The notes beneath the pieces are model-generated. The model saw nothing but the letters and a program-made list of their open reading frames with translations, was not told the origin of the DNA and made no database searches. From contig JAXMNT010000005.1 of assembly GCA_034670305.1 (NCBI GenBank), forward strand, positions 64,001 through 128,000: DNA of 64,000 bases, read 5' to 3'. The stretch is from Deltaproteobacteria bacterium. Lineage in GTDB: Bacteria > Myxococcota_A > Polyangia > Polyangiales > Houyiibacteriaceae. Shown piece by piece: positions 7,679-64,000 of this stretch. The translations under genes and the position numbers were made by a program. Numbering within the stretch: position 1 is the first letter of the stretch; each line of letters begins with the position of its first letter.

Positions 7679-8479
7679 ATGAATGCGTTTCTTGGATTTC
7701 TGTTCGGCGTGGTGGCCACGGTCGGGGCGCTCCTCGGCTGGAGCTACTACTCGGACCAGCAAGACCAGGGACAACGGTCATCGGCTCCGACGGTGGTGCC
7801 CTCCGCCCCCGAACTGATCCGAGAGATCGTCGATCCCCGACCTCGGACCCCGCGGGTCGTGTACCTCAACCGCGAAGGCGCGATCTTGCGGGCGGGCGTC
7901 GACGACTCGACGAAGAACGTGTCGAGCATCGTCGAACACGTCTTGCAAACCGAGATCGACTATCCGGCGTTCGCCTCCACCGGGAGTCGGTGGCGCGGCA
8001 TCGTCGAGTGCGTGCAGGAGAAACTCGAGGCGTTCGACGTCGTCGTGACGGACCGGCGCCCCACGGAGCCGGGCTACATCATGGTGATGATCGGCGGGCG
8101 ACCGAGTCTGCTCGGAAGCGACAACCCGCACGTGCATGCGGCGGGGCTGTCGCCGTTTCATGGCGGCGTGATCCCCGATTCGATCGTCATGGTGTTTGCG
8201 CAAGAGGTCCGGCACAGCGAACGCGAAACCTGCGAAGCGGCGGCGCAGGAGATCGCGCACTCGTACGGACTCGACCACACCTACGACTGCCGAGACCTGA
8301 TGACGTACCGGCGTCGTTGCGGACGCGCCCGCACCTTCGTCGACGAAGACATGCCGTGCGGCGAACACGAAGCCCGCGACTGCAAACCGGCCGACTCGGG
8401 CCCCACCCAGAACAGCCACGCCCGATTGATGGAAGTGCTCGGGCCCCGCCCCCCACCCGCGCCCGCTCCAGAAGAGTGA
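7679..8479 (+). CDS. Membrane-anchored metzincin-like protein
   Basis: N-terminal TM helix; QEIAHSYGLDH...DLMTY (HExxHxxGxxH variant plus Met-turn). Confidence 0.6.
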   Translation: MNAFLGFLFGVVATVGALLGWSYYSDQQDQGQRSSAPTVVPSAPELIREIVDPRPRTPRVVYLNREGAILRAGVDDSTKNVSSIVEHVLQTEIDYPAFASTGSRWRGIVECVQEKLEAFDVVVTDRRPTEPGYIMVMIGGRPSLLGSDNPHVHAAGLSPFHGGVIPDSIVMVFAQEVRHSERETCEAAAQEIAHSYGLDHTYDCRDLMTYRRRCGRARTFVDEDMPCGEHEARDCKPADSGPTQNSHARLMEVLGPRPPPAPAPEE

Positions 8480-8529
8480 CGCGACGCGCACTCGGTGCAC
8501 GCAGCGGTCAATTCTGCGAACCTCGCCGC

Positions 8530-9108
<579 letters not shown>

Positions 9109-9114
9109 CGCGGC

Positions 9115-9210
9115 AGCGTCGGGGTCGGGCTCGGCGTCGGGGTCGGCTTCGGGGTCGGCTTGAAACCGAGGGCAAGGGCAAGGGCAGGGGCAAGGGCAAG
9201 GGCAGGGGCC
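9115..9210. repeat. (TCGGSN)n plus (GGGCAA)n composite tract
   Basis: Directly visible. Confidence 0.9.
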
Positions 9211-9267
9211 CCGGATCGACGCGGTAGGTAACATCTGGCGCTGCAATGCGTCATTGTTCCAATCCCC

Positions 9268-12099
9268 ATGGGTGGACTGCGCCGAGAAGACCGCCGAGAC
9301 CTGATTCTCGGATTCATCACGCTCTTCGCGATGATGATGTCGCACGCGCTCGCAGAGACGGCGCGCGACGCGCTGTTTCTCAGCCGGCTGCCCGCATCGC
9401 AGTTGCCTTGGGCCTACCTGGCGATCGCCGGTCTGGTCGGGGTGGTCGTGCGGGGCCTGACGCGGGTCCGCACCGCGATGCCGGACAAGCGGCGGCTCCT
9501 GGTGGGCACGATGGTGGTGGCCGGCGCCGTCGACATCGCCCTCGGTCTCGTGGCGCAAGACGCGGACGCGCGGCTCCTCTTCGGCCTCTACACCTGGACC
9601 GGTCTCGTCGCGACCGTCCTGATCCTGCAGCTCTGGCTCTTGCTCGAAGACGTCGTCACGGTCACCCAGGCGAAGCGGATCTTCGGTCCGGTCGCCGCGG
9701 GCGGCGTGCTCGGCGCGCTCGTCGGCTCGGCGGCCGCCGAGGCGCTGCTCATGGCCGAGACGAGCGCGACCGGCTTGTTGGTCGCCGCGGGCGCGGTGCT
9801 CCTGGTCGGCAGCGTCCTGCCCCTGCTGTGGCGCACCCCTGCGCCGGCCGTCGGGCGCGCCACCGTTCGGGTGCCCGACAAACAGGAACACGGGTTCCGC
9901 CGGCTCTGCGGTCACCTCTACCTGCGTCGGCTCTTGATGCTGGTGCTCTTCAGCACCATCGCGTTCACCATCGGCGACTACCTCTTCAAGAGCGTCGTCG
10001 CGGAGACGATCCCGACCGCGGAGCTCCCGAGTTTCTTCGCGAAGTTCTACATCGTGCTCAACGGCGCCGCGCTCTTCGTGCAGATCTTCCTCTCCGGTTG
10101 GCTGCTGCGCGCGTTCGGTGTGGGTCGCGCGCTCTACGTGCTGCCCATCGCCATGCTCGCCGCTGCCGTCGGGTTCGCGACCGTGCCGCTGCTGTTGCCG
10201 GTGCTCCTGCTCAAGGGCGCCGACGGGTCGCTGCGCCACTCGCTCCACCGCACCGCGACGGAGGTGCTCTACCTCCCGCTCAGCCAGGAGCTGCGCGAAC
10301 GCTACAAGGGCCTCATCGACGGCGTGGGCCAGCGCGGCGGACAGGCCCTCGCCTCCCTCGGCATCCTCGGCGCGGTCGCACTCGGTGCCACGCCGTGGCA
10401 CCTCTCCCTCGCACTCATCGCCGCCGGCGTCCTCTGGGTCGGCGTGCTCTTCGGGCTGCGCGGCACCTACCTCCAGCTCTTCCGCATCGGCCTGCGCGGG
10501 GGCGAGGTTCAGGGCCAAGGTCAGTCGCTCGAGATCGATCTGCACGCGCTCGAGGCGCTGCTCTCCGGCCTGAACAGCGAAGCGGACGAAGAGGTCATCG
10601 CCGCGCTCGATCTGCTCGAGGGCTTCGACAAGGTCCGCGTCGTTCCGCGCTTGGTCCTCTACCACCCGTCGACCGCGGTGAAGGTGCGCGCGCTCGCCAT
10701 GTTCGGCCAAGAAGGCGACCGCGCCTTCATTCCGATCGCGCACCGGCTGCTCCGTTCGGAGGAGTCCTCGATCCGAGTCGCGGCGCTCCGCGCATTGGCC
10801 AAGGTCGAACCCACCGAGACCCTGTACCCGCCCTTCCTCGACGGCAGCTGTCCGGCGTTGCACGCCACGGCCTTGGTCGGGTTGCTCGCGAGCCGGCGAG
10901 ACGGCGCGGTCGGCACCACGGAAGTGGCGGGCGACCTGACCGTGTCCGAACTCGAAGACCAGCTCGAGGCGCTGATCCAAGAAGGCGACCCGCTGCTCTG
11001 CACCGAGCTCGCCCACGCGATGCGCGCCCATCCGGATCCGCTCTTCGTCGAACCACTGCTGCGCCTCATGCATGCGCGCGAACCCGAAGTCCGCGCAGCC
11101 GTCGCCGGCGCGATGGAGAAACAACCGAATCCCCGCTTCTTCGAAGCGCTGCTTCCCCAGCTCGGCGACGGCCTCGTGCGCCCCTTCGCTCGCCGCGCAT
11201 TTCTGGCCGCCGGCGACGACGCGCTCCACTTCCTCGACCAGTCCCTGGCGCCCTCCTTCCAGCTCTCGACCGACGTCGGCAGCTCCCTCGCCGGCATGCC
11301 GCGCGCCGCACTGAAGGCGGGCGCGTTGATTCCTCGGCGGGTGCGCCGCCACATCCCGCGCACCCTCTCGCGTTTTCCAGCGGAGCAAGTCGCGCCGATG
11401 CTGCTGCGCCACATGCAGACCGAAGAGGACGGCGCGGTGCGCTACAAGATGCTGCGCGGACTCGGTCGCATCCGGGCCCAACATCCGAAACTCGAGATCG
11501 ACACCCGCGCAGTGAAGAAGCTGTTCCGCGCCACACTCGAGCGGGTGGTGCACCTACTCGAGTTCCAGATGGCCGTGCGCACGCAGCACCGGGACCACCC
11601 CTCGCTTGGCGCGGAGCTGATCGAAGCCAGCCTCGAGGAGAAGGTCGCCAATGCCCTGGAGCGAAGCTTCCGCTTTCTCGGCCTGTTGAACCCACGCGAA
11701 GACTTCGCGCTGCTCTGGCGCGGGGTCCGTTCCAAAGACGCCCACTCCCACGCCGCCGCGATGGAGCTGCTCGAACACGTGCTCACCGGAGCCGAACGCA
11801 CGGCGCTCTTGGCGCTCCTCGATCGACGGCCCACGGCGCAGCGGCTGGCCTACGCCGCCCAAGCGCTGTCGATCACGTTCCCACCCCAGACCTACCCAGC
11901 CCGACTCGGCGCCGCACTGCACGACCGCAGCGAGGCGCTCCGCTCGCTCGTCGCCTACCACGTCGCCGAGCTCGGCCTGACCGACTTGGAGCCCCAGTTG
12001 CGTGACGCCAAACCCGACCGTGAAGGATTCGTCTCCGAAGTGATGGAGCGCGCGCTTCAGGCGCTGCTCGGCAACCGCGGGGTCACCGGTGCCGCCTGA
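9268..12099 (+). CDS. Npt1/Npt2 (TLC ATP/ADP translocase-like) transporter fused to HEAT repeats
   Basis: About 12 TM helices with ETARDALFL, QAKRIFG, DYLFK and LRHSLHRTATEVLYLPL motifs, followed by HEAT-like helical repeats. Confidence 0.85.
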   Translation: MGGLRREDRRDLILGFITLFAMMMSHALAETARDALFLSRLPASQLPWAYLAIAGLVGVVVRGLTRVRTAMPDKRRLLVGTMVVAGAVDIALGLVAQDADARLLFGLYTWTGLVATVLILQLWLLLEDVVTVTQAKRIFGPVAAGGVLGALVGSAAAEALLMAETSATGLLVAAGAVLLVGSVLPLLWRTPAPAVGRATVRVPDKQEHGFRRLCGHLYLRRLLMLVLFSTIAFTIGDYLFKSVVAETIPTAELPSFFAKFYIVLNGAALFVQIFLSGWLLRAFGVGRALYVLPIAMLAAAVGFATVPLLLPVLLLKGADGSLRHSLHRTATEVLYLPLSQELRERYKGLIDGVGQRGGQALASLGILGAVALGATPWHLSLALIAAGVLWVGVLFGLRGTYLQLFRIGLRGGEVQGQGQSLEIDLHALEALLSGLNSEADEEVIAALDLLEGFDKVRVVPRLVLYHPSTAVKVRALAMFGQEGDRAFIPIAHRLLRSEESSIRVAALRALAKVEPTETLYPPFLDGSCPALHATALVGLLASRRDGAVGTTEVAGDLTVSELEDQLEALIQEGDPLLCTELAHAMRAHPDPLFVEPLLRLMHAREPEVRAAVAGAMEKQPNPRFFEALLPQLGDGLVRPFARRAFLAAGDDALHFLDQSLAPSFQLSTDVGSSLAGMPRAALKAGALIPRRVRRHIPRTLSRFPAEQVAPMLLRHMQTEEDGAVRYKMLRGLGRIRAQHPKLEIDTRAVKKLFRATLERVVHLLEFQMAVRTQHRDHPSLGAELIEASLEEKVANALERSFRFLGLLNPREDFALLWRGVRSKDAHSHAAAMELLEHVLTGAERTALLALLDRRPTAQRLAYAAQALSITFPPQTYPARLGAALHDRSEALRSLVAYHVAELGLTDLEPQLRDAKPDREGFVSEVMERALQALLGNRGVTGAA

Positions 12100-51817: not shown

Positions 51818-52510
51818 ATGATCCCCCAGCCACACAGTCCCGCAACCATTGAAGAATTCGCCGAATCTGCCGGATCGGACAATTCCCTCAGCTGCGCTCC
51901 CGCAGCGCGATTGTCGGAGATCCGGGGCGGCCAGGGGCGCACCACGCTGGCCGCGCTCGAGATCTTGGCCGCCCAAACGCGAGGTGAACCGGTCGCATGG
52001 ATCCAGCCCCGGGCTTCCACTTCCCTCTACCCGCCGGACCTCGCGGCCATGGGCATCGATCTCGACACCCTCGTGGTGGTGAACGTGCCGCCCAAAGCCC
52101 TCGAGGTGCTGGCCGCGTCGGAGGTGCTGCTCCGATCCGGCGGCTTCGGACTGGTGGTCGCGGACCTGACCGGCAGCGGTTCCACCATCGCAACCCGCGC
52201 CACCTCTCGACTGGCCCGGCTGGCCCGTCAACACAGCGCACGCCTCTTGCTCCTGACCGAAGAGGGCGTGGGCGAAGTCGGACCGCTGGTCAGCCTCCGG
52301 GTGCGGCCAGCGCTCGAACGACAGGGAGACGACTTCCGTCTCCACGTCGAGATCGAACGCGACAAGACCACCGAAGCGGGCGGCAGCGCCGCGCCCGGGC
52401 GCGTGATGGTCCGTGGACCGGTCGGCGCGTCGGAAGCGGACCGCGTCACCACGAACCGAGACCGATCGAGCGGGACTTCGGTCGTGTCGATCCGCCGGAG
52501 GGTGGCATGA
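51818..52510 (+). CDS. imuA: ImuA-like RecA-fold protein
   Basis: Degenerate Walker A (GGQGRTT), LYPPDLAAMGIDL, LLRSGGFGLVVADL; first gene of the cassette. Confidence 0.8.
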   Translation: MIPQPHSPATIEEFAESAGSDNSLSCAPAARLSEIRGGQGRTTLAALEILAAQTRGEPVAWIQPRASTSLYPPDLAAMGIDLDTLVVVNVPPKALEVLAASEVLLRSGGFGLVVADLTGSGSTIATRATSRLARLARQHSARLLLLTEEGVGEVGPLVSLRVRPALERQGDDFRLHVEIERDKTTEAGGSAAPGRVMVRGPVGASEADRVTTNRDRSSGTSVVSIRRRVA

Positions 52511-54738
52511 CCCAGCTCGCCATCGACGGACTCGAACCCGAACGCGATGCACGCGAAGAGGACGACGTGCCCTCCCGCGCGCAGCGGCGGCCCGAACACC
52601 GGCCCCCTCGGAGCAAACGCCGCAAGACCCGTCGCGCCCTGCGCCGCTCCGTGCTGCCGCCGAGCACGGACGAGAGCGCGACTGCGTCGGGAAGCACTGC
52701 GCCTTCGGGAAGCACTGCGCCTTCGGGAAGCACTGCGCCTTCGGGAAGCACTGCGCCTTCGGGAAGCACTGCGCCTTCGGGAAGCACTGCGCCTTCGGGA
52801 AGCACTGCGCCTTCGGGGGCGGCGGCCAGCGAACTTCCGGTGGGCGCCACGGCCGTGCTCCCCACGTTCCCTGCTCCGGAGCCCGCGCCCAAGCGGCGGG
52901 GCGTCTCGGTCGGGGACGATCCGGAGCTCGCGCACGCGGCGATCGTGATCGGCCAGCTCCCCGTGCAGCTCGTGCTTCGACGGGAACCTCGATGGCGCGG
53001 CACCCCGGTCGCGATCGTCGCGGGTGATGGACCCAACGCGTTGGTCACCCACCTGTCTCGGGAGGCACGCAAGCGAGGCCTGCGGGTCGGGTTGAGCCAA
53101 GGGGTCGCCCGCAACCTGGTGCCCGATCTTCGAACCCGCATCGTCACCGACGCAGAGCGCGACGCACTTCACCAGGACCTCGCCCGCGGTCTGCAGCTCT
53201 TCTCTCCGCGCGTGACGATCGAAGAACGTTTCGAAGGGTGTTTCACCGTCGACCCGACCGGGCTCGGTCCGCTCTTCGGCGGCATGGCCGCGTGGACGCG
53301 CGCGGTGCACGCGTACCTGAAAGGCCGCGGACTCTGGGCCGCCGTCGTGGTCGGCCGACACCGCTACCGCACGCTGGTCTCGGCGCTGTCGATGAACGGC
53401 CCCGCGGTGCTGAGCGCGGAAGACGAGTCCTCGAAGAGCGACGCGTGCACGCTGCGCGCGCTTGGGGTGCCGGAGAAGATCGCCGACCCCCTCGCGATGT
53501 TGAAGGTGCGCACCGTCGGCGCGCTGCGCGCACTCCCGGCGGGCGAACTCGAGACCCGGTTCGGAAGAGACATCCGCGCCCTGCAGGATCTCTTCGCCGA
53601 CCAGGGGCACCTTCCGATGCAGCCGCTCCGCCCCGAGGCACCGCGGCGCATCGAGCGAGAACTGCTGCCCCCGAGAACCACCCGCCATGCCGCGCTCGCG
53701 GATCTCTCCGCGTCGATCGACGAGCTCCTCGTGGATCTTCGTGGGCGCGGGGAAGTCGCCGAGGCGCTCACCTTCTCCCTTCAACTCGAGCGCCACGGAA
53801 CAGCCCGGCTGAGCGACTCCGAACGCCAGGTCGAAGCCCGCCTCGAACCGGCCGAACCCACCTGCGACCATGCGGTCTGGATGGAACTCGTCGGCCTGCG
53901 CTTCGACGAGATCCCCTTGCCCGCCGCGGTCCAGTCACTGGTCGTCGAAGCGGAGGTCCGGGCGCACCACGGCCAGCAGCTGCGGGTCCAGACCGAACCG
54001 GTTCCAAGACGCGACGCCCACGCCGCGGCCCGCGCGCTGGCCCGCCTGCGCGCCAGCTACGGCCCCTCCGCCGTCGCGCGTGCCGAGCTGCGCGACGCCC
54101 ACTTGCCGGAAGCGAAATTCGCGCTGGTCCCCTTCGAACCCGGCGCGCGCCTCGTGCGCAAGGCCGCACCGTCGCGGGCCAAGCCGGCGGTTCGGCACGC
54201 CAGCGCCTCCCCATCCGCACTGGCAGACGCGAAGGCGACACCGAGCGACGCGCCGAAGTCCGCCGGCGCCACGACCGAGCGCACCGTCATCGGAGGCGCG
54301 TCCGGCGCGCGCGCCGCGGGGTCGCTCGTCCTGCTCCGGTCCGACGCGCCCCGCTCCGACGCCATTCGGACCGACTCGGCCGACGCGGACGAAGACGCAC
54401 GCAGCGACGCAGCCGAGGACGGCGGCGACGACCTGGCGAGCCGGCGGGACGCCAGCGTGCCACTGCACGACCACGCACCGGACCGCCCGCGCCTGGCGCG
54501 CCGACTTCTCGCGCGTCCGCGTCGTTTGGGGGCGGGCCGCGAACCTGCGATCGGGGAGCGGGTGGTCGCGTTCTACGGACCGCACACGATCAGCGGGGGA
54601 TGGTGGGGCGCGCCGACGCCGAGCGGCGCGGTGCGCTCCACCGAACGCACGTACTTCTACGTCGAAGGAGAGAGCGGCCGGCTGCACTGGGTCTATCGAT
54701 CGCGCGGCGAGTGGTTCCTGCAGGGACACGTGGACTGA
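52507..54738 (+). CDS. imuB: ImuB, inactive Y-family polymerase-like protein
   Basis: ATGA coupling, ARKRGLRVG, FSPRV, C-terminal GP..ISGGWW...RTYFYVE...WVYR...WFLQGHVD. Confidence 0.85.
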   Translation: MTQLAIDGLEPERDAREEDDVPSRAQRRPEHRPPRSKRRKTRRALRRSVLPPSTDESATASGSTAPSGSTAPSGSTAPSGSTAPSGSTAPSGSTAPSGSTAPSGAAASELPVGATAVLPTFPAPEPAPKRRGVSVGDDPELAHAAIVIGQLPVQLVLRREPRWRGTPVAIVAGDGPNALVTHLSREARKRGLRVGLSQGVARNLVPDLRTRIVTDAERDALHQDLARGLQLFSPRVTIEERFEGCFTVDPTGLGPLFGGMAAWTRAVHAYLKGRGLWAAVVVGRHRYRTLVSALSMNGPAVLSAEDESSKSDACTLRALGVPEKIADPLAMLKVRTVGALRALPAGELETRFGRDIRALQDLFADQGHLPMQPLRPEAPRRIERELLPPRTTRHAALADLSASIDELLVDLRGRGEVAEALTFSLQLERHGTARLSDSERQVEARLEPAEPTCDHAVWMELVGLRFDEIPLPAAVQSLVVEAEVRAHHGQQLRVQTEPVPRRDAHAAARALARLRASYGPSAVARAELRDAHLPEAKFALVPFEPGARLVRKAAPSRAKPAVRHASASPSALADAKATPSDAPKSAGATTERTVIGGASGARAAGSLVLLRSDAPRSDAIRTDSADADEDARSDAAEDGGDDLASRRDASVPLHDHAPDRPRLARRLLARPRRLGAGREPAIGERVVAFYGPHTISGGWWGAPTPSGAVRSTERTYFYVEGESGRLHWVYRSRGEWFLQGHVD
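52687..52812 (+). repeat. Perfect 18-bp tandem repeat x7 (TCGGGAAGCACTGCGCCT; SGSTAP) inside imuB
   Basis: Counted directly. Confidence 0.97.
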
Positions 54739-54747
54739 TCTCTCCGC

Positions 54748-57700
54748 ATGGCTGCGCCGCCGTACGTTCCGCTGTGGACCAAGAGCCACCACAGCTTTCT
54801 CGAAGGGGCCAGCAGTCCGGAGGAACTGATCGACACCGCCGGGGACCTCGGACTGCCGGCGATCGCCCTGACCGACCGCAACGGTGTGTACGGCGTGGTC
54901 CGCGCCCACGAGCGCGCCCGTTCGCGAGACGACGTGCGCGCGATCTTCGGCGTCGAACTCCGGATCGACGACGAGGAGGGCTCCCACGGTGCGCGTGAAC
55001 TCCAGCGCGGCAAGACCAGCGCCCGGTCGGCCGCGGTCGGTGGCAGGTGCGGTGGCACGCGCGGTGGCACGCGCAGTGGCAGTCGCGGTGCCACGCCCAG
55101 CAACGCAGGCAGCGCCGCCGGTGGCACCCGGAGCGCCATCGATGGCCAGCGCGTTGGCGAGGGTACAACGAGCGGATCGAGTCGCTCGGCACCGCGACGA
55201 GTCGGAGGCGCGCCGGCGGGCCGGGTCGTGCTCTTGCCGGTGGACCGGCGCGGCTGGGCCAACCTCTGTCGGCTGACCACCCGCGCGCACACCCGCGGTG
55301 CCAAGGGCGACGCGTGGGCGACGTGCGAAGAACTCGCCGACCACGCCGAGCACCTCATCGCGCTGAGCGCCGACCTCTCGCTGCTCCCAGTCATCCGTGG
55401 CGCCTTCGATCGCCGCGGACACGCCTTCGTCGCGCGTCACCGCATCTCCGGAGAACGGGAGCGCGAACAGCAACTGCGCGCCGCAGCATGGCGCCTCGGC
55501 CTTGGCCTCGTCGGCGGCCAAGAGGTGCTCTACCACCACCCCGATCGGCGCCGGCTGCAGGACGCGGTCAACTGCATCCGCCACCACACCACGCTCCGCC
55601 ACGCCGGCTCGATCCTCAAACCCAACCACGACTTCGCGATCCGCAGCGCGCGGGCGATGCGCGCCCTCTTCCGCGACGACCCGGCGCTGCTCCACGCCAC
55701 CCTCGACATCGCGGCGGAGTGCACCTTCCGGCTCGAAGATCTCCGCTACCGCTACCCGGAGGAGTCGTTGCCCGACGGAGAGACGGAGCAGAGCTGGCTT
55801 CGCGTCCGCACCCTGCGCGGCGCCGAGAATCGGTACCCGGCCGGCGTGCCCGAAGGCGTGCGCACCCAGCTCGAACGCGAGCTCGGCGTCATCGAGCAGC
55901 TCGAATACGGCGGCTACTTCTTGACCATGGTGGAGATCGTCGACTTCTGCCGCGCCGAAGGGATCCTCTGCCAAGGCCGCGGCAGCGCCGCCAACAGCGC
56001 GGTGTGTTTCTGCCTCGGCATCACCGCCATCGATCCGGTGCGCATGGATCTGCTCTTCGAACGTTTCCTCAGCGTCGAACGCGCCGAACCACCCGACATC
56101 GATCTCGACATCGAACACGAGCGCCGCGAGGAGGTCATCCAGCACGTCTACGAACGCTATGGACGCCGCCGCGCCGCGATGGTCGCCAACTGCATCCGCT
56201 ACCGCGGCAAGTCCGCGGTGCGCGAGATGGGCAAAGCGCTCGGCATCCCGGAGACCGATCTGGACGCGGTCAGCAAACTCATGCCGCACTTCGGAGGCGA
56301 GATTCAGGACGCAGAGGAACTGGCCAAGGGCGCGGGGCTCGATCCGCACGCGCCCTCCACGTTTCATCTGTTGAAACTCGCCAGCGAACTCATCGACGCG
56401 CCGAGGCACCAGTCGATCCACCCCGGCGGCTTCTTGCTCGGCGACGTGCCGGTCGACGAACTCGTGCCGGTCGAACCCGCGACGATGGAAGGCCGCACGG
56501 TGATCCAGTGGGACAAGTACGACGTCGAGAACCTGGCGCTCTTCAAGGTCGACCTGCTCGGCCTCGGCGCGCTCACCTGCATCCGCAAGTCCTTCGAGCT
56601 GCTGCGCGAACACGAAGGGCTCGACCTCGGCATCGCCACCGTGCCGCCCGACGACAAAGCGACCTACGACATGGTCTCCCGCGGCGACACCGTGGGCGTC
56701 TTCCAAATCGAGAGCCGTGCCCAGATGGCGATGTTGCCGCGCCTCAAACCCCGCACGTTCTACGACCTCGTCATCGAAGTGGCGATCGTGCGGCCGGGCC
56801 CGATTCAAGGCGACATGGTGCACCCCTACCTGCGCCGCCGCGACGGACTCGAGACCGTCGAGTACCCGCATCCGAAACTCGAGCGTGTGCTCCAGAAGAC
56901 GCTCGGCGTGCCGATCTTCCAGGAGCAGGTGATGAAGGTCGCGGTCGCGGTCGCGGACTACACGCCGGGCGAAGCCGACCAACTGCGCCGCGACATGGCC
57001 GCCTGGCGAAGCTCCGGCAAGATCGAGCAGCACCACGAACGCATGACCGGCGCGATGGTGAACAACGGCATCCCCCTCGACTTCGCCGAGCGTGTCTTCT
57101 CGCAGATCCGCGGCTTCGGCGAATACGGCTTCCCCGAGAGCCACGCCGCGTCGTTTGCGCTGCTCGCCTACGTCACCTCGTGGCTGCGCTGCCACCACCC
57201 CGCCGCCTTCGCCTGCGCGCTCCTCAACAGCATGCCGATGGGCTTCTACAGCGCCGCCACCCTGGTCGAAGACGCGCGCCGCAACGGCGTCGACGTCCTC
57301 CCCATCGACGTCCTGAGCAGCACCTACGACCACTGCCTGGTCCGCGACGCACTCGACTCGGGCGTGGGGGCGGGAGCCGGAGGGGGCGCGGAAGCGGGAG
57401 CGGGAGCGGGAGCGGGAGCGGTGGCGGAAGCAGGGGCGGGAGCGGAAGCGGGAGCGGCTGCGGGATCGGACGCGGCTTCGGGGTCGGCTTCGGCTTCGGC
57501 TTCGGGGTCGGGATCGGCTTCGGCTTCGGGATCGGCTTCGGGCGCACCCGAGGGCACGGGCAAGGGCAAGGGCACGGGCAAGGGAGCGCCGCCTTTGGCG
57601 GCGCTGCGAATGGGCATGCGGCTCGTCAAAGGCCTCTCCGAGTCCGACGCCCACTCGATCGAAACCCTCCGCCGCTCCGGCCGGCTCACCTCGCTCGAAC

Positions 57701-58314
57701 GCCTCGTGCGCGAGACAACCCTCTCCGAACGCGCCCTCGTCTCTCTCGCCGAAGCCGGGGCGCTCGAACGACTCACCCGGAGCCGCCGCGATGCGCTCTG
57801 GCAGATCCGCGCTTTGACCCGCGCCCGCCAAGACGGCATCGCCGCCGCCGCGCCCCGCACCCAGCTCAGCTTCGACGCCCTGACGGAAGACGAAGCCGTG
57901 CTCTGGGACTACCGCGCGTCGAAACACAGCGCGCGCGGCCACCCGATCGCGCGCTTCCGATCGGAGCTCCATGCGCGCGGCATGCCGAGCGCCGTCGACC
58001 TCGAACGCAACCTGCACGGCGACGTCGTGAAGTACGTCGGGCTCGTCATCTGTCGGCAGCGGCCGATGACCGCGAGCGGTGTCACCTTCATGACGCTCGA
58101 AGACGAGACCGGCTTCGCCAACCTCGTCTTCTGGGCCCGTCAGTTCGAACAGGACAGCGTGCTCTTGAAGACCGCGGTGGTGCTCGGCGTCACCGCCGAG
58201 GTGCAGAAGGCCGACGGCGTCACCCACCTCATCGTGCAGCGCGCCTGGCGACCACCCCCCGAGCTGCAACCGAAGACTCAAGAGCTGAACCACCAGTCCC
58301 GCGACTTCCATTGA
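54748..58314 (+). CDS. dnaE2: Error-prone DNA polymerase DnaE2 (ImuC)
   Basis: SFLEGASSPEEL, CQGRGSAANSAVC, PPDIDLD, GFPESHAASFA, C-terminal SRDFH. Confidence 0.95.
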   Translation: MAAPPYVPLWTKSHHSFLEGASSPEELIDTAGDLGLPAIALTDRNGVYGVVRAHERARSRDDVRAIFGVELRIDDEEGSHGARELQRGKTSARSAAVGGRCGGTRGGTRSGSRGATPSNAGSAAGGTRSAIDGQRVGEGTTSGSSRSAPRRVGGAPAGRVVLLPVDRRGWANLCRLTTRAHTRGAKGDAWATCEELADHAEHLIALSADLSLLPVIRGAFDRRGHAFVARHRISGEREREQQLRAAAWRLGLGLVGGQEVLYHHPDRRRLQDAVNCIRHHTTLRHAGSILKPNHDFAIRSARAMRALFRDDPALLHATLDIAAECTFRLEDLRYRYPEESLPDGETEQSWLRVRTLRGAENRYPAGVPEGVRTQLERELGVIEQLEYGGYFLTMVEIVDFCRAEGILCQGRGSAANSAVCFCLGITAIDPVRMDLLFERFLSVERAEPPDIDLDIEHERREEVIQHVYERYGRRRAAMVANCIRYRGKSAVREMGKALGIPETDLDAVSKLMPHFGGEIQDAEELAKGAGLDPHAPSTFHLLKLASELIDAPRHQSIHPGGFLLGDVPVDELVPVEPATMEGRTVIQWDKYDVENLALFKVDLLGLGALTCIRKSFELLREHEGLDLGIATVPPDDKATYDMVSRGDTVGVFQIESRAQMAMLPRLKPRTFYDLVIEVAIVRPGPIQGDMVHPYLRRRDGLETVEYPHPKLERVLQKTLGVPIFQEQVMKVAVAVADYTPGEADQLRRDMAAWRSSGKIEQHHERMTGAMVNNGIPLDFAERVFSQIRGFGEYGFPESHAASFALLAYVTSWLRCHHPAAFACALLNSMPMGFYSAATLVEDARRNGVDVLPIDVLSSTYDHCLVRDALDSGVGAGAGGGAEAGAGAGAGAVAEAGAGAEAGAAAGSDAASGSASASASGSGSASASGSASGAPEGTGKGKGTGKGAPPLAALRMGMRLVKGLSESDAHSIETLRRSGRLTSLERLVRETTLSERALVSLAEAGALERLTRSRRDALWQIRALTRARQDGIAAAAPRTQLSFDALTEDEAVLWDYRASKHSARGHPIARFRSELHARGMPSAVDLERNLHGDVVKYVGLVICRQRPMTASGVTFMTLEDETGFANLVFWARQFEQDSVLLKTAVVLGVTAEVQKADGVTHLIVQRAWRPPPELQPKTQELNHQSRDFH

Positions 58315-58351
58315 TGCACGTGAGCCGCAGTCACCGTGACCTCAACAGCGT

Positions 58352-58458
58352 GTGCCGTGGCCGTGCCCGTGCCCGTGCCCGTGCCCGTGCCCGTGGCTTC
58401 CGAGGCTTCGGAGTCGCCACCCGCAGCCATCTTCGGATTGGGCTTCACGCTTCGGCGT
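58352..58458. repeat. (GTGCCC)n plus degenerate TCGG tract
   Basis: Directly visible. Confidence 0.8.
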
Positions 58459-58598
58459 CAAAGTGCGTCGGACACCACGCACACATGAACGACGCCGATC
58501 CGAAAAACTTCTCTCAATGTGCAGACGGGCGGTTGACGGACCGGAAGGGCGTACCCAATCTGCTGTCTCCCGCGGCGCAGAAAGAAAAGGGAACTTCC

Positions 58599-58799
58599 AT
58601 GATTCATTTGCGCTTCGAAGGACGCTCCTACGAGTTCACGCCCCTGCAGCTCGGTGTTCACGCCGGCAGCGACGCGCGGCACATCAAGGAGCGGATCGCT
58701 CAGTTCCTCGACGTCGGCACGGACCGGCTCCAGCCCTACGTCGTCGATCATTCCCCCACCGGACACGTCATCGTTCGTCCGGAAGCCGTCTACGGCTGA
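58599..58799 (+). CDS. Small ubiquitin-like (beta-grasp) protein, 66 aa, ending RPEAVYG
   Basis: Purine-rich RBS (AAAGGGAA); beta-beta-alpha-beta-beta pattern; C-terminal Gly. Confidence 0.7.
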   Translation: MIHLRFEGRSYEFTPLQLGVHAGSDARHIKERIAQFLDVGTDRLQPYVVDHSPTGHVIVRPEAVYG

Positions 58800-58840
58800 A
58801 GCCTCTCGACCGACGCTTCCCGTCTTGGCATCAAGAGTTC

Positions 58841-59011
58841 GGTTCTCGCGACCCTACGTAGAAAGCCTACATACCCATTTCAAACCTGAGGATGTCGGTG
58901 CAAGTCCGACCCGGCCCGCCGCGACGAACCGTCGCTTCTCCAATGGGTCGGTAGTTCAATAGATAGAACGCAGGAGAGTATCCAAAAGCTTTCGCGACTC
59001 GCGCGAGATCC
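58841..59011 (+). ncRNA. Unit 1: circularly permuted tRNA-like RNA (YrlA/Y-RNA-like topology)
   Basis: T arm GTCGG-TGCAAGT-CCGAC (58894-910) precedes D arm GTTC-AATAGATA-GAAC (58954-69); acceptor CCGGCCC/GGGTCGG is internal; ends closed by GAAAGC/GCTTTC and TCTCGCG/CGCGAGA. Confidence 0.8.
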
Positions 59012-59053
59012 AATCCAACACTGTCCCAAGGGACCCCAACTTCGTCAGGCTAC

Positions 59054-59112
59054 GGTCTGGCACCGTCGGACGTGAGTCCGGCAAAGGGTTGGACGCAAGT
59101 CCAACCTAGACC
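59054..59112 (+). ncRNA. Small three-way-junction element with two GGAC-GYRA-GTCC hairpins
   Basis: GTCGGAC-GTGA-GTCCGGC and GGTTGGAC-GCAA-GTCCAACC, closed by GGTCTG/TAGACC. Confidence 0.45.
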
Positions 59113-59135
59113 AAGATGCAAAGCAGCTTGGTTAT

Positions 59136-59284
59136 GGCGTTGTAGCTCAGTGGTAGAGCTCCAAGTTTACACCGCTTTCGAAACTTACGCGCAGAGCAAT
59201 CAAGCGCGGCCTCATCGTGGAAGCGTACATACTGTTTGGCCTCATAAGCCGGATGTCATAGGTTCGAATCCTATCAACGCCACC
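59136..59284 (+). ncRNA. Unit 2: tRNA(CAT)-like RNA interrupted by a 75-nt structured insert in the anticodon stem
   Basis: Acceptor GGCGTTG/CAACGCC, D arm GCTC-AGTGGTA-GAGC, T arm ATAGG-TTCGAAT-CCTAT; removing 59163-59237 restores CCGGC-CTCATAA-GCCGG. Confidence 0.8.
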
Positions 59285-59312
59285 GACGAACAGATGTCTT
59301 CGACGTCTGACC

Positions 59313-59408
59313 TCGCGCCCACCACCTGTTCCTACACACTCTCTTTGCAACAGAAGTTCTGTCTTCGGGGAGCGATCCCCGTCGCAAACGAACAGGCGAC
59401 TTTCGCGA
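59313..59408 (+). ncRNA. Unit 3: degenerate/minimal member of the same RNA family
   Basis: TCGCG/CGCGA and CCTGTTC/GAACAGG stems, CTACACACT motif, GGGGA-GCGA-TCCCC hairpin where the T arm would lie. Confidence 0.55.
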
Positions 59409-59558
59409 ACACTCGTCACCAACGTTATTGCCCGTCTCTCGCGGGGTTTCTGTGGGCCCGGACGCCTTCGGCTTTCCGAACCCTCGAAAACGGCTCCGGA
59501 CCTGCTCGTCGCTTCGCTCCTGCGCGGGCCCAGAGCCTCCCGCGCGAAAGATCACGTT

Positions 59559-59678
59559 CCTCGTGCCCTCACCCTCGCGGCTTACACACTCGTCTAATGG
59601 CTAGACACCGGATTATGGATCCGGCCATGGTGGTTCGATTCCACCGTGTCCAAATCAGCCGAGAAACCTTGCACGAGG
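59559..59678 (+). ncRNA. Unit 4: tRNA-His-like body (loop TT-ATG-GA) with the acceptor stem replaced by the conserved bulged helix
   Basis: D arm GTCT/AGAC, anticodon arm CCGGA/TCCGG, T arm GGTGG-TTCGATT-CCACC; closed by ACAC/GTGT, CGGCT/AGCCG, CCTCGTGC/GCACGAGG. Confidence 0.8.
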
Positions 59679-59690
59679 TTCACAACTTTC

Positions 59691-59820
59691 TTCCTCGTAC
59701 CCTCACAGGACCGGCTTACATACTAGCCTAATTGGTAAAGGCGACGGATTCTTAATCTGTAGATTGGGGGTTCGAGTCCCCCGTATACTCAAAACAGCCG
59801 ATCCAATCTTGTACGAGGAA
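59691..59820 (+). ncRNA. Unit 5: tRNA-Lys(CTT)-like body with the acceptor stem replaced by the conserved bulged helix
   Basis: D arm GCCT/AGGC, ACGGA-TTCTTAA-TCTGT, T arm GGGGG-TTCGAGT-CCCCC; closed by ATAC/GTAT, CGGCT/AGCCG, TTCCTCGTAC/GTACGAGGAA. Confidence 0.82.
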
Positions 59821-59853
59821 ACTATTTTGTCGGCGCCATTCGGCGCCTTCTGC

Positions 59854-59889
59854 ACCTGACACCTCGACCTGCGGGTCGAGGTGTCGGGT
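59854..59889 (+). terminator. Strong 16-bp hairpin after the RNA array (terminator or processing/stability element)
   Basis: ACCTGACACCTCGACC-TGCG-GGTCGAGGTGTCGGGT; no clean U-tract. Confidence 0.45.
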
Positions 59890-59947
59890 CGCTTGGGTTT
59901 CGAAGCATCGGACACGTTCCGAAGCCGGTTCTCGGCATCGGAACGCG

Positions 59948-60080
59948 GAGTCGGTTTCCGGCTTCGGACTCGGCTTCGGCTTCGGCTTCGGCTTCGGATT
60001 CGGCTTCGGCTTCGGCTTCGGCTTCGGCTTCGGCTTCGGCTTCGTATTCGGCTTCGGTTTCGGCTTCGGTTTCGGTTTCC
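59948..60080. repeat. (TCGGCT)n tract
   Basis: Directly visible. Confidence 0.92.
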
Positions 60081-60119
60081 GCCTCTGTTTCCGCGACCGC
60101 GACCGCTCTTGGGCGATGA

Positions 60120-61694
<1,575 letters not shown>

Positions 61695-61960: not shown

Positions 61961-62089
61961 GCGTTTCGGAGAATTTCGAAGCGACGTTTCGGAGGGACCA
62001 CACAGCGCTTCGAAGCAGCGCTTCGCGAACAGCCGCCGTTCCAAACCTTCGTGCGTGGTCCGCCACGCACACCACCTCAGGAGGTCGTC

Positions 62090-62911
62090 ATGACCCAGAC
62101 CCAGATGCACAACGCCTACCGCCTGGCCGCCGCCGCGGTCCGTCGCCGCTACCTCGAGCAGCGCCCCGCCACGCTTGACGCACTCGATGCGCTCGCGCGT
62201 GGACACGTCGGGGTGCTCAAGGGCACGTACGACTCCGTCGAGCACGTGCTCGAGGCGCTGGGTGTGCCGTTCGAGATGAACCCGAAGAAGCTGACGCCCA
62301 AGTCGGGCAAGAAGGTCGTCTTCGCGAACTGCGCGAGCGCCTACACGCCCGAGCTCGTGTCCGACATCGAACGGTCGGTGCGCGAAGGTGCGCTGCTCGT
62401 GAGCTCGGACTGGGCGCTCGGCCGGCTCATCCAGGTCGGTTTCCCCGGCACGATCCGCAAGGCGCCGAAGGGCTCCAAGGACGAGGTCGTGGGCGTCGAG
62501 CCCACGCTCGACGGCATCTGGTCGGAGATCGTCGTGCTTGGTGCCGACCCGCAGTGGTGGCTCGAAGGCGGCAGCGAAGCGATCGAGGTTCTCGACCACG
62601 AGCGCGTGCGCGTCGAAGCGTCCAGCCACGAGATGCTGTGCAGCTACGACGCGTCGCCGGTCGCGGCGAGCTTCGACTGGCACGCAGGCCGCGTGTTCCA
62701 CGTGGTCAGCCACTTCTGGCTCAAGCGCACCCGCGCCGCGACGCCGGCGACGGCGGCCGACTTCCTCCGGCGCGGCATGCGCCTGAGCGAAGAGGGCATC
62801 GAGAAGGTCTTCGCGACCTCCAAGGTGCCGAAGGACCAGATCGACTTCGCGTCGCTTCAGAGCGCCGCGACGTCGACCGAACTGGTCGCGCGCCTGGTCG
62901 CGGAGGCGTGA
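62090..62911 (+). CDS. Hypothetical protein, class-I glutamine-amidotransferase-like fold suspected
   Basis: [44 protein letters not shown] pattern. Confidence 0.6.
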
Positions 62912-63261: not shown

Positions 63262-64000
63262 ATGACCCACGTTCTCGATCTCATCGATCGGCTCGCCAAG
63301 CGCGAGGCCGAGTTCGCGCAGCGGCGGTTCCTCGCGCCGTGTGTGCCGGGGGCCAAGCTGCGTGTGCGCATCGATGGACTCGTGCACGAGGTTCGGCCGA
63401 ACCCGGCGGGCTTCGCGGGGTGGGGGGTGTTTCAGGCGATCGACGCGAAGCGCGCGCAGCTCGTGGCGCGTCCGGAAGCGTCGTCGATCGAGCGGTACCT
63501 CGGGGCGCTCGATCTCGTGCGCTTGCACCTCGTCTCGCAGGCGCGCGGTCGCGCGTGGTGGGCGGTGCCCGTCGGCGCGGAGGCGTTGCGGGTGCGGTAC
63601 GGATTGACGGCTCCGGTCGTCGTCCACCTCACGCGGGATGCCACCCAGTTCGAGACGGTGCAGGCACGCTTCGACGGCGCGAACTTCTGGTACGCCGGAC
63701 CGGAGTACCTCGCGGATCCGGTGCTCGCCGAGACCCTTCGCGACGCGCTTCAGACGTGGATCGAAGCGCCTCGGGCAGCGCATCTGACGCCGGAGCTCCT
63801 GCACGCCTACGCGCTCGCGTTTGGCATCCAGGCCGAGGCCCGGGCCAAGAAGCTCGCCGCAGAAGTCGCCGAACGTCGCAAGACGGTCGACGGCCGCATC
63901 GAGCACGCGCTGCACGTCGGTGGCGGCACGCTCATCGGGCACCGCGAGGCGCACGGTGCGCTTCAGGTGGAGTGGCGGGACCGCCACGGCCACCGCCACA
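63262..64000 (+). CDS. Hypothetical protein, truncated by the window end ([28 protein letters not shown]...)
   Basis: Open frame from ATG 63262 to the end, absent from the ORF track because it has no stop; normal codon bias; same strand as the TROVE-vWA operon. Confidence 0.75.

Follow-up and report, generated by a model that had tools for sequence, protein, structure and literature searches.

A conserved 66-residue beta-grasp protein with an invariant C-terminal glycine and its putative partners, a ThiF-type E1 and a Ro60-like RNA module

What does a 66-residue protein ending in a single glycine do at the head of a series of structured RNAs, and is it activated at that glycine? The question is raised by a stretch of 64,000 nucleotides from Deltaproteobacteria bacterium (Polyangiales; contig JAXMNT010000005.1 of assembly GCA_034670305.1, positions 64,001 to 128,000 of the forward strand), referred to below as the window, in which a preliminary description made from the sequence alone had picked out a small gene at 58599..58799. 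We will refer to the product as Ubl, for ubiquitin-like protein. The gene is the first of a conserved and horizontally spread cassette in which Ubl is followed by structured RNAs, a Ro60-like protein with TROVE-like and vWA parts, two orphan proteins that we designate c25 and c6, and a ThiF protein. We propose, with a probability of roughly 60%, that Ubl represents a new minimal ubiquitin-like family, that a small E1 of its own activates it at Gly66, and that it works together with a Ro60/Y-RNA-type module. Support for this proposal comes from the conservation of the gene, the predicted fold, the invariant glycine end, the linkage of the genes and in-silico docking.

The Ubl gene (58599..58799, plus strand) begins with an ATG at 58599 and ends with a TGA at 58797-58799, and its translation yields 66 residues with RPEAVYG directly before the stop, in agreement with the position and sequence first given for it. 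It forms the in-frame tail of a 1250-residue open reading frame (ORF) at 55047..58799, which the preliminary description had dismissed as spurious. That judgement was correct, because the long ORF reads another frame of the genuine gene upstream, at 54748..58314, which encodes the PHP, DNA_pol3_alpha, finger, HHH_6 and OB domains (Pfam) of a DnaE2-type error-prone polymerase. A word-indexed search with Ubl at a limit of E<=0.01 returns 77 homologues, every one of them named 'hypothetical'. The 77 come from Myxococcota, from cyanobacteria including Coleofasciculus, and from a Pyrinomonadaceae metagenome-assembled genome (MAG), and 70 have a length of exactly 66 residues. In the resulting alignment of 78 sequences R5, E7, G8, S10, A34, D50, G55 and the final seven residues are invariant. 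An exhaustive profile search extends the family to 379 cluster representatives at E<=1e-3 (172 at E<=1e-10), and on contigs representing one genome per species a relative is encoded at 475 of 484 pattern matches, corresponding to 475 species genomes. The best 80 of these 475 relatives belong mostly to filamentous cyanobacteria, and also to Myxococcota, a Vulcanimicrobiota MAG and a relative of Beggiatoa. Two plasmids carry a relative, as does an uncultured 595-kb phage whose protein is 32% identical and ends RPDAIFG. The distribution is patchy, with Ubl present in three of 101 sampled genomes of the window's own class.

Because the Ubl ORF terminates a long spurious frame, and the DNA has about 70% GC, one might take it for a random open frame of GC-rich sequence or for what is left of a degraded gene. 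Hundreds of homologues of fixed length with invariant residues, in Cyanobacteriota, Myxococcota, Vulcanimicrobiota, a Beggiatoa relative, plasmids and the 595-kb phage, already refute this explanation, whose probability is negligible, and the Ubl ORF is a real and widely conserved gene. Profile scans assign Ubl to no Pfam or NCBIfam family at E<=10 and to no PADLOC family at E<=0.01. The GC content falls from about 0.70 to 0.57-0.59 across 58500-60000, and a scan of 58250-60300 for sigma-70 promoters and terminators gives no promoter and one terminator-like site, which is not above the yield of shuffled sequence. Among the matches to the profile, P0119 (1983 residues, 11 matched stretches) was rejected as a false positive, being an ankyrin/NACHT protein, and P0200 is an apparent fusion of gene calls.

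The C-terminal glycine, which the preliminary description had considered exposed and suitable for adenylation by an E1, proves to be conserved. Gly66 and the whole RPEAVYG tail are invariant in 78 of 78 close relatives, and among the best 150 of the cluster representatives at 50% identity 112 end in P-x-x-x-[YFWH]-G, 14 have this motif followed by an extension, and 24 lack it; these last are mostly fragments, together with one ankyrin false positive and one protein ending VYA. The extensions are 1-215 residues long, always begin directly after the glycine and look like the tails of precursors. In one of the 14, P0151 (291 residues), the ...FFG end of the Ubl domain leads straight into a vWA domain that has a DxSxS motif, and this fusion is a hint, of the Rosetta-stone kind, that the Ubl and vWA proteins may act together. 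Relatives other than P0151 have tails of 1-56 residues past the glycine.

Ends of this type have eukaryotic counterparts. The mature forms of Atg8, Atg12 and Ufm1 finish in a single glycine after an aromatic or aliphatic residue, and some of their precursors carry C-terminal extensions. Ubl resembles them in both respects, although these proteins are eukaryotic, show no detectable sequence relation to Ubl and are served by much larger E1s.

An AlphaFold2 (AF2) model of Ubl based on the 78-sequence alignment has a predicted local distance difference test score (pLDDT) of 90.1 and a predicted template modelling score (pTM) of 0.77. It shows the ββ-α-ββ topology of a beta-grasp, with strands at residues 2-6, 9-13, 47-51 and 57-61 and a helix at 26-37, which is the order of secondary structure that had been guessed from the sequence. 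The last block of the model has a lower pLDDT (67), consistent with a flexible tail. When the model is compared with the PDB by Foldseek, the top rows are all of the ubiquitin family (ISG15, NEDD8, ubiquitin and SUMO; best E 0.31, TM 0.51). An exhaustive VIA-align search returns PB1 (Z 5.3), four MoaD chains (4.4-4.9), TtuB (5gha_E, 4.1) and SAMP1 (3.8), and nearly all of the best 50 rows are beta-grasp proteins. In absolute size these Z scores are modest, and the weight lies in the agreement across the VIA-align rows. The likeness to ubiquitin and YukD first suggested for this protein therefore stands as far as the beta-grasp fold is concerned, but not as membership by sequence of the ubiquitin, ThiS, MoaD or YukD families, to which Pfam finds no match at E<=10.

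The preliminary description had postulated a neighbouring ThiF/E1, and such a gene is indeed present on the same strand as Ubl, 5.5 kb downstream, at the window-equivalent position 64288-64914, which begins 288 bases beyond the end of the window. Its product matches Pfam PF00899 (E 3e-29) and is 67% identical to a Myxococcota ThiF query (E 6e-89). The protein is minimal, of about 208 residues and with no fused rhodanese domain, and the family alignment keeps the motifs GAGALG, DRDRxEExNLxTQ and FDN..R together with an invariant cysteine in DDVCDYP. It remains under the curated cut-off of every NCBIfam model for ThiF, MoeB, PRTRC or SAMP-E1, the best of these being ThiS/MoaD adenylyltransferases (for example 98 bits versus 159), and it matches the E1 part of the PADLOC 'E1-E2' models with E as low as 2e-20.

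Complex prediction with ThiF residues 30-237 and Ubl, both supplied as alignments, and with three controls gives an ipSAE of 0.71 for the ThiF-Ubl pair (0.70, 0.73 and 0.71 in the separate runs) versus 0.02 for the best control. The mark used for such predictions is attained by 116 of 157 solved complexes, compared with 2 of 215 mismatched pairs. Both partners have a pLDDT of at least 89, and the contacts agree between runs to at least 98%. In the docked model residues 60-66 of Ubl touch ThiF at 57, at 59-62 in the GAGALG loop, at 145-149 in the FDN motif and at 169-172, with Gly66 itself contacting 61, 147 and 170, while the invariant N-terminal hairpin of Ubl (residues 5 and 7-10) contacts ThiF 228-235. 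These contacts account for both of the invariant blocks of Ubl. The docking supports a placement of the RPEAVYG tail in the nucleotide pocket of ThiF, and we infer that the cassette ThiF adenylates Ubl at Gly66.

The predicted geometry is analogous to that of MoaD-MoeB and ThiS-ThiF, in which a small beta-grasp protein also inserts a C-terminal glycine into the ATP site of a ThiF-fold adenylating enzyme. MoaD is among the best fold matches of Ubl, and the best NCBIfam matches of ThiF are of this type. However, Ubl has no Pfam ThiS/MoaD match and ends in Tyr-Gly, ThiF stays below the curated cut-offs, and the cassette neighbours are RNA genes and a Ro60-like protein, with no thiamine or molybdopterin genes nearby. 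A second comparison is with TtuB-TtuC of Thermus and Urm1-Uba4, which are pairs of a ubiquitin-like protein and an E1 that serve tRNA thiolation. Here too a ubiquitin-like protein and an E1 are tied to tRNA, and TtuB is among the fold matches (Z 4.1), but no TtuA/Ncs6-type partner was found in the cassette, and its RNAs are a private tRNA-like and Y-RNA-like family and not cellular tRNAs.

These parallels bear on the alternative that Ubl is a sulfur carrier, in which ThiF would adenylate Gly66, the product would be converted to a thiocarboxylate and the sulfur would be used, in the manner of TtuB/TtuC or Urm1/Uba4, for thiolation of tRNAs or of the tRNA-like RNAs of the cassette. We consider it unlikely. 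The closest folds do include MoaD (Z 4.4-4.9) and TtuB (Z 4.1), ThiF scores best, below cut-offs, with ThiS/MoaD adenylyltransferases, and the tRNA-like RNAs adjoin the Ubl gene. However, the neighbours scanned include no PP-loop ATPase of the TtuA/Ncs6 type, no rhodanese and no cysteine desulfurase, the short ThiF (about 208 residues) carries no fused rhodanese either, and the terminus is Tyr-Gly instead of Gly-Gly. The precursor-like extensions and the vWA fusion would also suit a modifier better than a sulfur carrier.

Two further groups of prokaryotic systems pair a small protein with a ThiF-type enzyme. Prokaryotic operons combining a ubiquitin-like protein with an E1, an E2 and a JAB protein for conjugation were reportedly described by Iyer, Burroughs and Aravind in 2006, and the Bil, Bub and CBASS-Cap2 systems belong to the same group. 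The cassette is similar to such operons in encoding a ubiquitin-like protein with a C-terminal glycine, which in those operons is reactive, and a dedicated E1, and ThiF matches the E1 part of the PADLOC 'E1-E2' models; it differs in that Ubl, c6 and c25 match no PADLOC model and that no E2 or JAB protein is recognised here. The PRTRC cassette (TIGR03736/TIGR03738) is likewise mobile and encodes a short ThiF with a protein of about 70 residues, and PRTRC_ThiF is among the ThiF matches, but at 39-56 bits versus a cut-off of 144.75. Ubl has no NCBIfam match at E<=10, and the cassette lacks ParB as well as the PRTRC A, B, D, E and F genes.

How tightly these genes are linked was assessed by a census based on tblastn, comprising 80 loci and the window's own genome (81 in total) and counting neighbours within 10 kb. 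The Ro60-like gene is present in 69 of the 81 loci, every time downstream of Ubl and on its strand. c6 occurs in 34 loci and ThiF in 33, in 31 of them on the same strand as Ubl, and wherever both lie downstream on that strand c6 is immediately 5' of ThiF; in two loci (L011 and L019) ThiF is upstream of Ubl on the other strand. At least 9 kb of downstream sequence is present at 60 of the 80 loci, so many cyanobacterial cassettes are without c6 and ThiF nearby. To look beyond the 10-kb limit we considered whole genomes, 106 in all, consisting of a sample of 101 from the window's class and five that lack c6 near Ubl. Each of these five has exactly one c6 elsewhere (E 1e-121 to 1e-134), and in the class sample strong c6 matches occur in the same three genomes as Ubl, on the same contig and strand, with one weak partial match among the other 98. 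The genes that come after ThiF in the window's own genome, dnaA and dnaN, are read from the opposite strand, which marks ThiF as the end of the cassette.

The Ro60-like protein (60231..61694, plus strand; 487 residues) has a TROVE-like N-terminal part followed by a vWA domain with a DxSxS motif (Pfam VWA_2, E 4e-4, below the cut-off), whose residues D304, S306 and S308 are invariant. It has no Pfam TROVE match. With the profile of its alignment, the best PDB match is a 'TROVE domain-containing protein' at E 0.024, and the two are colinear for 224 positions. Among 41 members of the family, vWA_Ro60 is recognised in one (E 0.004) and VWA_2 or VWA_CoxE in 25-26. In the ESM Atlas, clusters named TROVE score 0.94-0.97, and 14 of 30 matches belong to a TROVE-named set scoring 0.95. 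Taken together, these comparisons suggest that the protein is likely a divergent Ro60.

The closeness of this linkage bears on a different alternative, in which Ubl is a non-covalent adaptor, that is a structural subunit of a Ro60-like/RNA particle, and ThiF either binds it without chemistry or has another substrate. For example, the acidic or C-terminal tail of Ubl could occupy the metal site of the vWA domain, or Ubl could, like beta-grasp domains of the TGS type, attach to the 3' ends of RNAs. This fits the linkage to the Ro60-like gene in 69 of 81 loci versus 33 for ThiF within 10 kb, the fusion in P0151 and the retention of DxSxS in the vWA domain. Against this, c6, which directly precedes ThiF in most loci, co-occurs with Ubl genome-wide (in five of five genomes, and in three of three versus one weak match in the other 98), the position of the glycine at the exact end of the protein and the extensions that start right after it are hallmarks of C-terminal chemistry, and docking puts Gly66 at the nucleotide pocket. 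We regard a purely structural role as doubtful.

Of the two orphans, c25 (62051..62911, plus strand; 286 residues, with invariant cysteine and histidine residues) is found in 9 of the 81 loci, including all six of Myxococcota type, and has no match in Pfam, NCBIfam, PADLOC or the PDB sequences. The c6 gene starts at 63262 on the plus strand and runs off the window at 64000; the whole gene, taken from the own-genome locus, extends to the window-equivalent position 64134 and encodes 290 residues, of which C27, C264 and H246 are invariant in the alignment. For c6 the ESM Atlas gives no usable match, the PDB-sequence profile gives noise only (E>=0.63), and Pfam and PADLOC give nothing. An E2-like reading of c6, suggested by a resemblance of motifs seen by eye, was dropped as no analysis supports it. 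Both proteins, with their invariant cysteine and histidine residues, are candidates for E2-type or deconjugase-type parts. The C-terminal 67 residues of c6, which include the invariant motif GxxCLxGxDxxFDLxSLV, have a weak match (G044:C12:655170-655370, E 3.6e-5) within a 997-residue open frame in a genome of the same class that lacks Ubl, and this part of c6 may be a separable domain.

Between Ubl and the Ro60-like gene the window contains at least four structured RNA elements on the plus strand, four of which score 98.9, 75.1, 24.9 and 22.1 bits with R1, a covariance model made from the RNA copies. The two best are at 59687..59825 (98.9 bits, E 2.8e-23, full length; Rfam tRNA 50.5 bits) and 59553..59685 (75.1 bits, E 3.5e-17, full length; Rfam tRNA 39.4 bits), and each consists of a Y-RNA-like stem around a tRNA-like cloverleaf, called by ARAGORN as 'Lys' (CTT, 59717-59790) and 'His' (ATG, 59582-59654) respectively. 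The element nearest to Ubl, element 1 (58838..59015; R1 24.9 bits, E 2e-4, full model length), has the outer stem, internal loop and GAAAGC helix of the family around a divergent inner domain, and the Rfam YrlA model finds a sub-threshold match within it (58856-59000, 28.2 bits versus a gathering threshold of 69). Element 2 (59136..59282; Rfam tRNA 50.6 bits, R1 partial match of 22.1 bits) is tRNA-like, its D arm and anticodon arm being separated by a 66-nt insertion, and ARAGORN reports 59208-59284 as 'Met cat'.

The same RNAs accompany Ubl elsewhere. There are 466 R1 matches at E<=1e-4 in the 80 loci and the phage locus, and the motif GCN-TACA[CT]AC is found on the plus strand between -600 and +4200 of the Ubl start in all 80 genome loci; taken over their full length, the loci hold 327 plus-strand and four minus-strand copies. 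The window itself has four copies and no more, each lying between Ubl and the vWA gene, including those at 58865 and 59223. ARAGORN finds short tRNA genes beside Ubl in most loci, with anticodons of every sort, including Leu and Ser types without the long arm, 'Pyl' cta, 'Stop' tta, 'SeC' tca, Asn att, His atg and four-base anticodons. The acceptor strand UACAUAC opens 118 of the 155 tRNA calls around Ubl. The conserved flanks of the tRNA-like copies pair with each other, and RNAalifold on 42 copies predicts an outer stem, an internal loop, a second helix and D, anticodon and T arms, with 31 pairs of which 19 show compensatory changes. Most of the RNAs have no encoded CCA, and the acceptor stem runs on into the flanking helix. 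Across loci L001-L080 the copies lie mostly 200-4000 bases downstream of Ubl, an A:A mismatch is present, and the anticodon varies between copies and between closely related strains. Annotation pipelines would list the members of this large RNA family as tRNA genes, and Rfam recognises them as tRNA only, apart from the one sub-threshold YrlA match; in one cyanobacterial locus there is no YrlA match at E<=1. An ORF family ('c19') that emerged from the clustering of neighbours was discarded, as it is translated tRNA-like DNA and not protein.

Several further observations concern the RNA segment of the window. In one metatranscriptome library contigs cover part of the RNA elements, namely 58958-59105, 59126-59276 and, as a small fragment, 59238-59273. 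Contigs of relatives from two marine metagenome runs join 59423 to 59552 and so skip the 128 bases of 59424-59551, which indicates that the spacer between RNA elements is variable among close relatives. A shorter copy of the outer stem and internal loop without a cloverleaf can be seen by eye at 59308-59415 (CCUCGCGCCCAC ... UACACAC ... GACUUUCGCGAAC), where R1 has no match at E<=1. Hexanucleotide microsatellites, (GCCCGT)n and (GGCTTC)n, bracket Ubl and the RNA segment at 58356-58395 and 59950-60080, the long one of the two separating the last RNA element from the Ro60-like gene.

The arrangement of a TROVE and vWA type protein beside structured RNAs recalls the Rsr (Ro60)-YrlA modules, which the portions of Chen et al. 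2014 (PMC4201824) considered here describe as often accompanied by RtcB and as present in phages too. YrlA RNAs are there permuted, tRNA-like Y RNAs beside Ro60, with few found in cyanobacteria and delta-proteobacteria. The cassette shares with these modules the adjoining RNAs with a tRNA-like domain, the occurrence in a phage and the weak YrlA match in the window, but its cloverleaf is complete and non-permuted, with a 7-nt anticodon loop and variable anticodons. In addition, the YrlA match in the window scores 28 bits versus 69, and the cassette protein misses Pfam TROVE.

The private RNA family invites a more radical alternative, in which the E1 would play the part of an aminoacyl-tRNA synthetase, joining Gly66 by an ester bond to the 3' end of the tRNA-like RNAs. 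In its favour, Ubl is always beside such RNAs, with their common acceptor stem and anticodons of every kind including stop-type and four-base ones. No protein E2 is recognised, and RNA-binding TRAM barrels are among the weak fold matches obtained for the N-terminal part of c6. We know of no precedent for the esterification of a ubiquitin-like protein to the 3' end of a tRNA-like RNA, most of the RNAs lack an encoded CCA and have an acceptor stem that extends into the flanking helix, the c6 model is unreliable and the idea is pure inference, so that we think it very improbable. A broader version would be a new kind of ribonucleoprotein system, in which the E1-activated Ubl, or sulfur derived from it, is put directly on the tRNA-like RNAs to produce tRNA mimics, charged with protein or modified with the help of Ubl, that would target ribosomes under phage attack or translational stress; this too we treat as a long shot.

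We favour a protein conjugate as the fate of Ubl because of the precursor-like tails and the vWA fusion, and a plausible course of events for the activation of Ubl by the cassette ThiF is as follows. The E1 would grip Ubl by the invariant N-terminal hairpin (RFEGRS), the RPEAVYG tail would enter its ATP site, and Gly66 would be adenylated. Conserved cysteines, in the E1, in the translationally coupled c6 protein or in both, would probably then relay the activated Ubl to an acceptor. This acceptor may be part of the Ro60-like/RNA module, for example the vWA protein or a component of translation or RNA repair. The system is probably active in translational or RNA stress or in conflict with phages. 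The adenylation, the thioester transfer, the acceptor and the physiology in this scheme are what we infer from the genes, the models and the docking.

A number of observations weigh against the activation of Ubl by a dedicated E1. ThiF and c6 are within 10 kb of Ubl in just 33-34 of the 81 loci, and among the neighbours scanned with Pfam, NCBIfam and PADLOC there is no E2, JAB or other deubiquitinase family. Ubl ends in Tyr-Gly (Phe-Gly in relatives) and not in the Gly-Gly of most ubiquitin-like proteins that are activated by an E1. The structural similarity is modest, as the best VIA-align Z is 5.3 and Foldseek against the PDB gives no match at E<=0.001 for the Ubl model. The counts that calibrate the docking mark are only rough because our own alignments were used as input, and the ThiF-Ubl pair may pass merely through its likeness to the solved MoeB-MoaD and ThiF-ThiS complexes. 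The AF2 model of c6 is poor (pLDDT 52.7), and its VIA-align matches are to barrels of the OB, NfeD and TRAM type (Z<=5.7) and not E2-like, a result that is itself unreliable as the model is poor. Finally, no contig of the one metatranscriptome library covers the Ubl ORF, although such contigs can show neither transcription nor silence.

In cyanobacteria the cassette adjoins inducible tRNA arrays, and upstream arrays of 13-38 tRNA genes are present in about 14 loci. An array lies directly upstream of Ubl on the same strand in L005, L009, L010, L013, L040, L041, L046, L047, L048, L052 and L077. The genes named beside cyanobacterial tRNA arrays in the available text of PMC8421152 are HNH, rtcB, dpsA and unnamed genes, and ThiF, ubiquitin and VWA are absent from that text. 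The Ubl/Ro60-like cassette seems to form the protein-coding tail of what PMC8421152 calls 'L-arrays'. Other genes are found in the cyanobacterial loci, namely a two-domain GNAT (41 loci), a paralogue of the L7/L12 C-terminal domain (24), a second 66-residue protein (21), DUF6847 (9), Tpt1/KptA (9) and several orphans. Examples of such variant genes, which comprise the L7/L12 paralogue, GNAT, the RNA 2'-phosphotransferase Tpt1/KptA and DUF6847, are at L008:12332-12733, L011:8555-9514, L011:15252-15848 and L011:14276-14734, and these companions give the cassette a flavour of translation and RNA repair. In the phage (LR756511.1, 595 kb; locus L088) Ubl, in the region 7929-10725, is flanked by two full-length R1 matches (82.7 and 70.1 bits) and by tRNA-like genes, one of which has a four-base anticodon.

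In the literature, a search of full texts, not of supplementary figures, found no earlier account of the cassette and no link of a ubiquitin-like protein or an E1 with Ro60, Y RNA or tRNA arrays. The available portions of PMC8421152, PMC7824862 and PMC4201824 make no mention of a ubiquitin-like protein or an E1 alongside Rsr under the terms ubiquitin, ubiquitin-like or ThiF. A preprint on Asgard viruses, in the part available, lists Ro60 and ThiF genes in one virus, which its authors leave unconnected.

The polymerase gene is preceded by an ImuB-like gene with an IMS domain, and this imuB-like/dnaE2 mutagenesis pair (51997-58314) lies directly upstream of Ubl; both ORFs contain low-complexity inserts (runs such as PSGSTA and GAGAEA) encoded by GC-rich hexamer repeats. 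Downstream, dnaA and dnaN are on the minus strand at L086:8861-10240 and L086:13739-14875, 1.9-8 kb beyond the end of the window, and their position just past ThiF places the cassette close to a probable replication origin region.

The known bacterial systems of ubiquitin-like proteins serve sulfur transfer or the antiviral tagging of proteins, and bacterial Ro60/Y-RNA modules serve RNA quality control, although their bound targets and actions are poorly understood. Here one conserved operon joins the themes of ubiquitin-like chemistry and of Ro60 and Y RNA, which hints at a bacterial link of the former to RNA quality control. The cassette has spread horizontally among filamentous cyanobacteria, Myxococcota, plasmids and a huge phage, often next to inducible tRNA arrays that aid survival of translation inhibitors. 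If Ubl is activated by the cassette E1, it would represent a new and very small family of ubiquitin-like proteins with an aromatic-glycine end like that of Atg8, served by a minimal E1 of about 208 residues that would be easy to study. It would also provide a first handle on a protein-modification step in Ro60/Y-RNA biology, and would explain the hundreds of cyanobacterial "tRNA genes" that are annotated with impossible anticodons.

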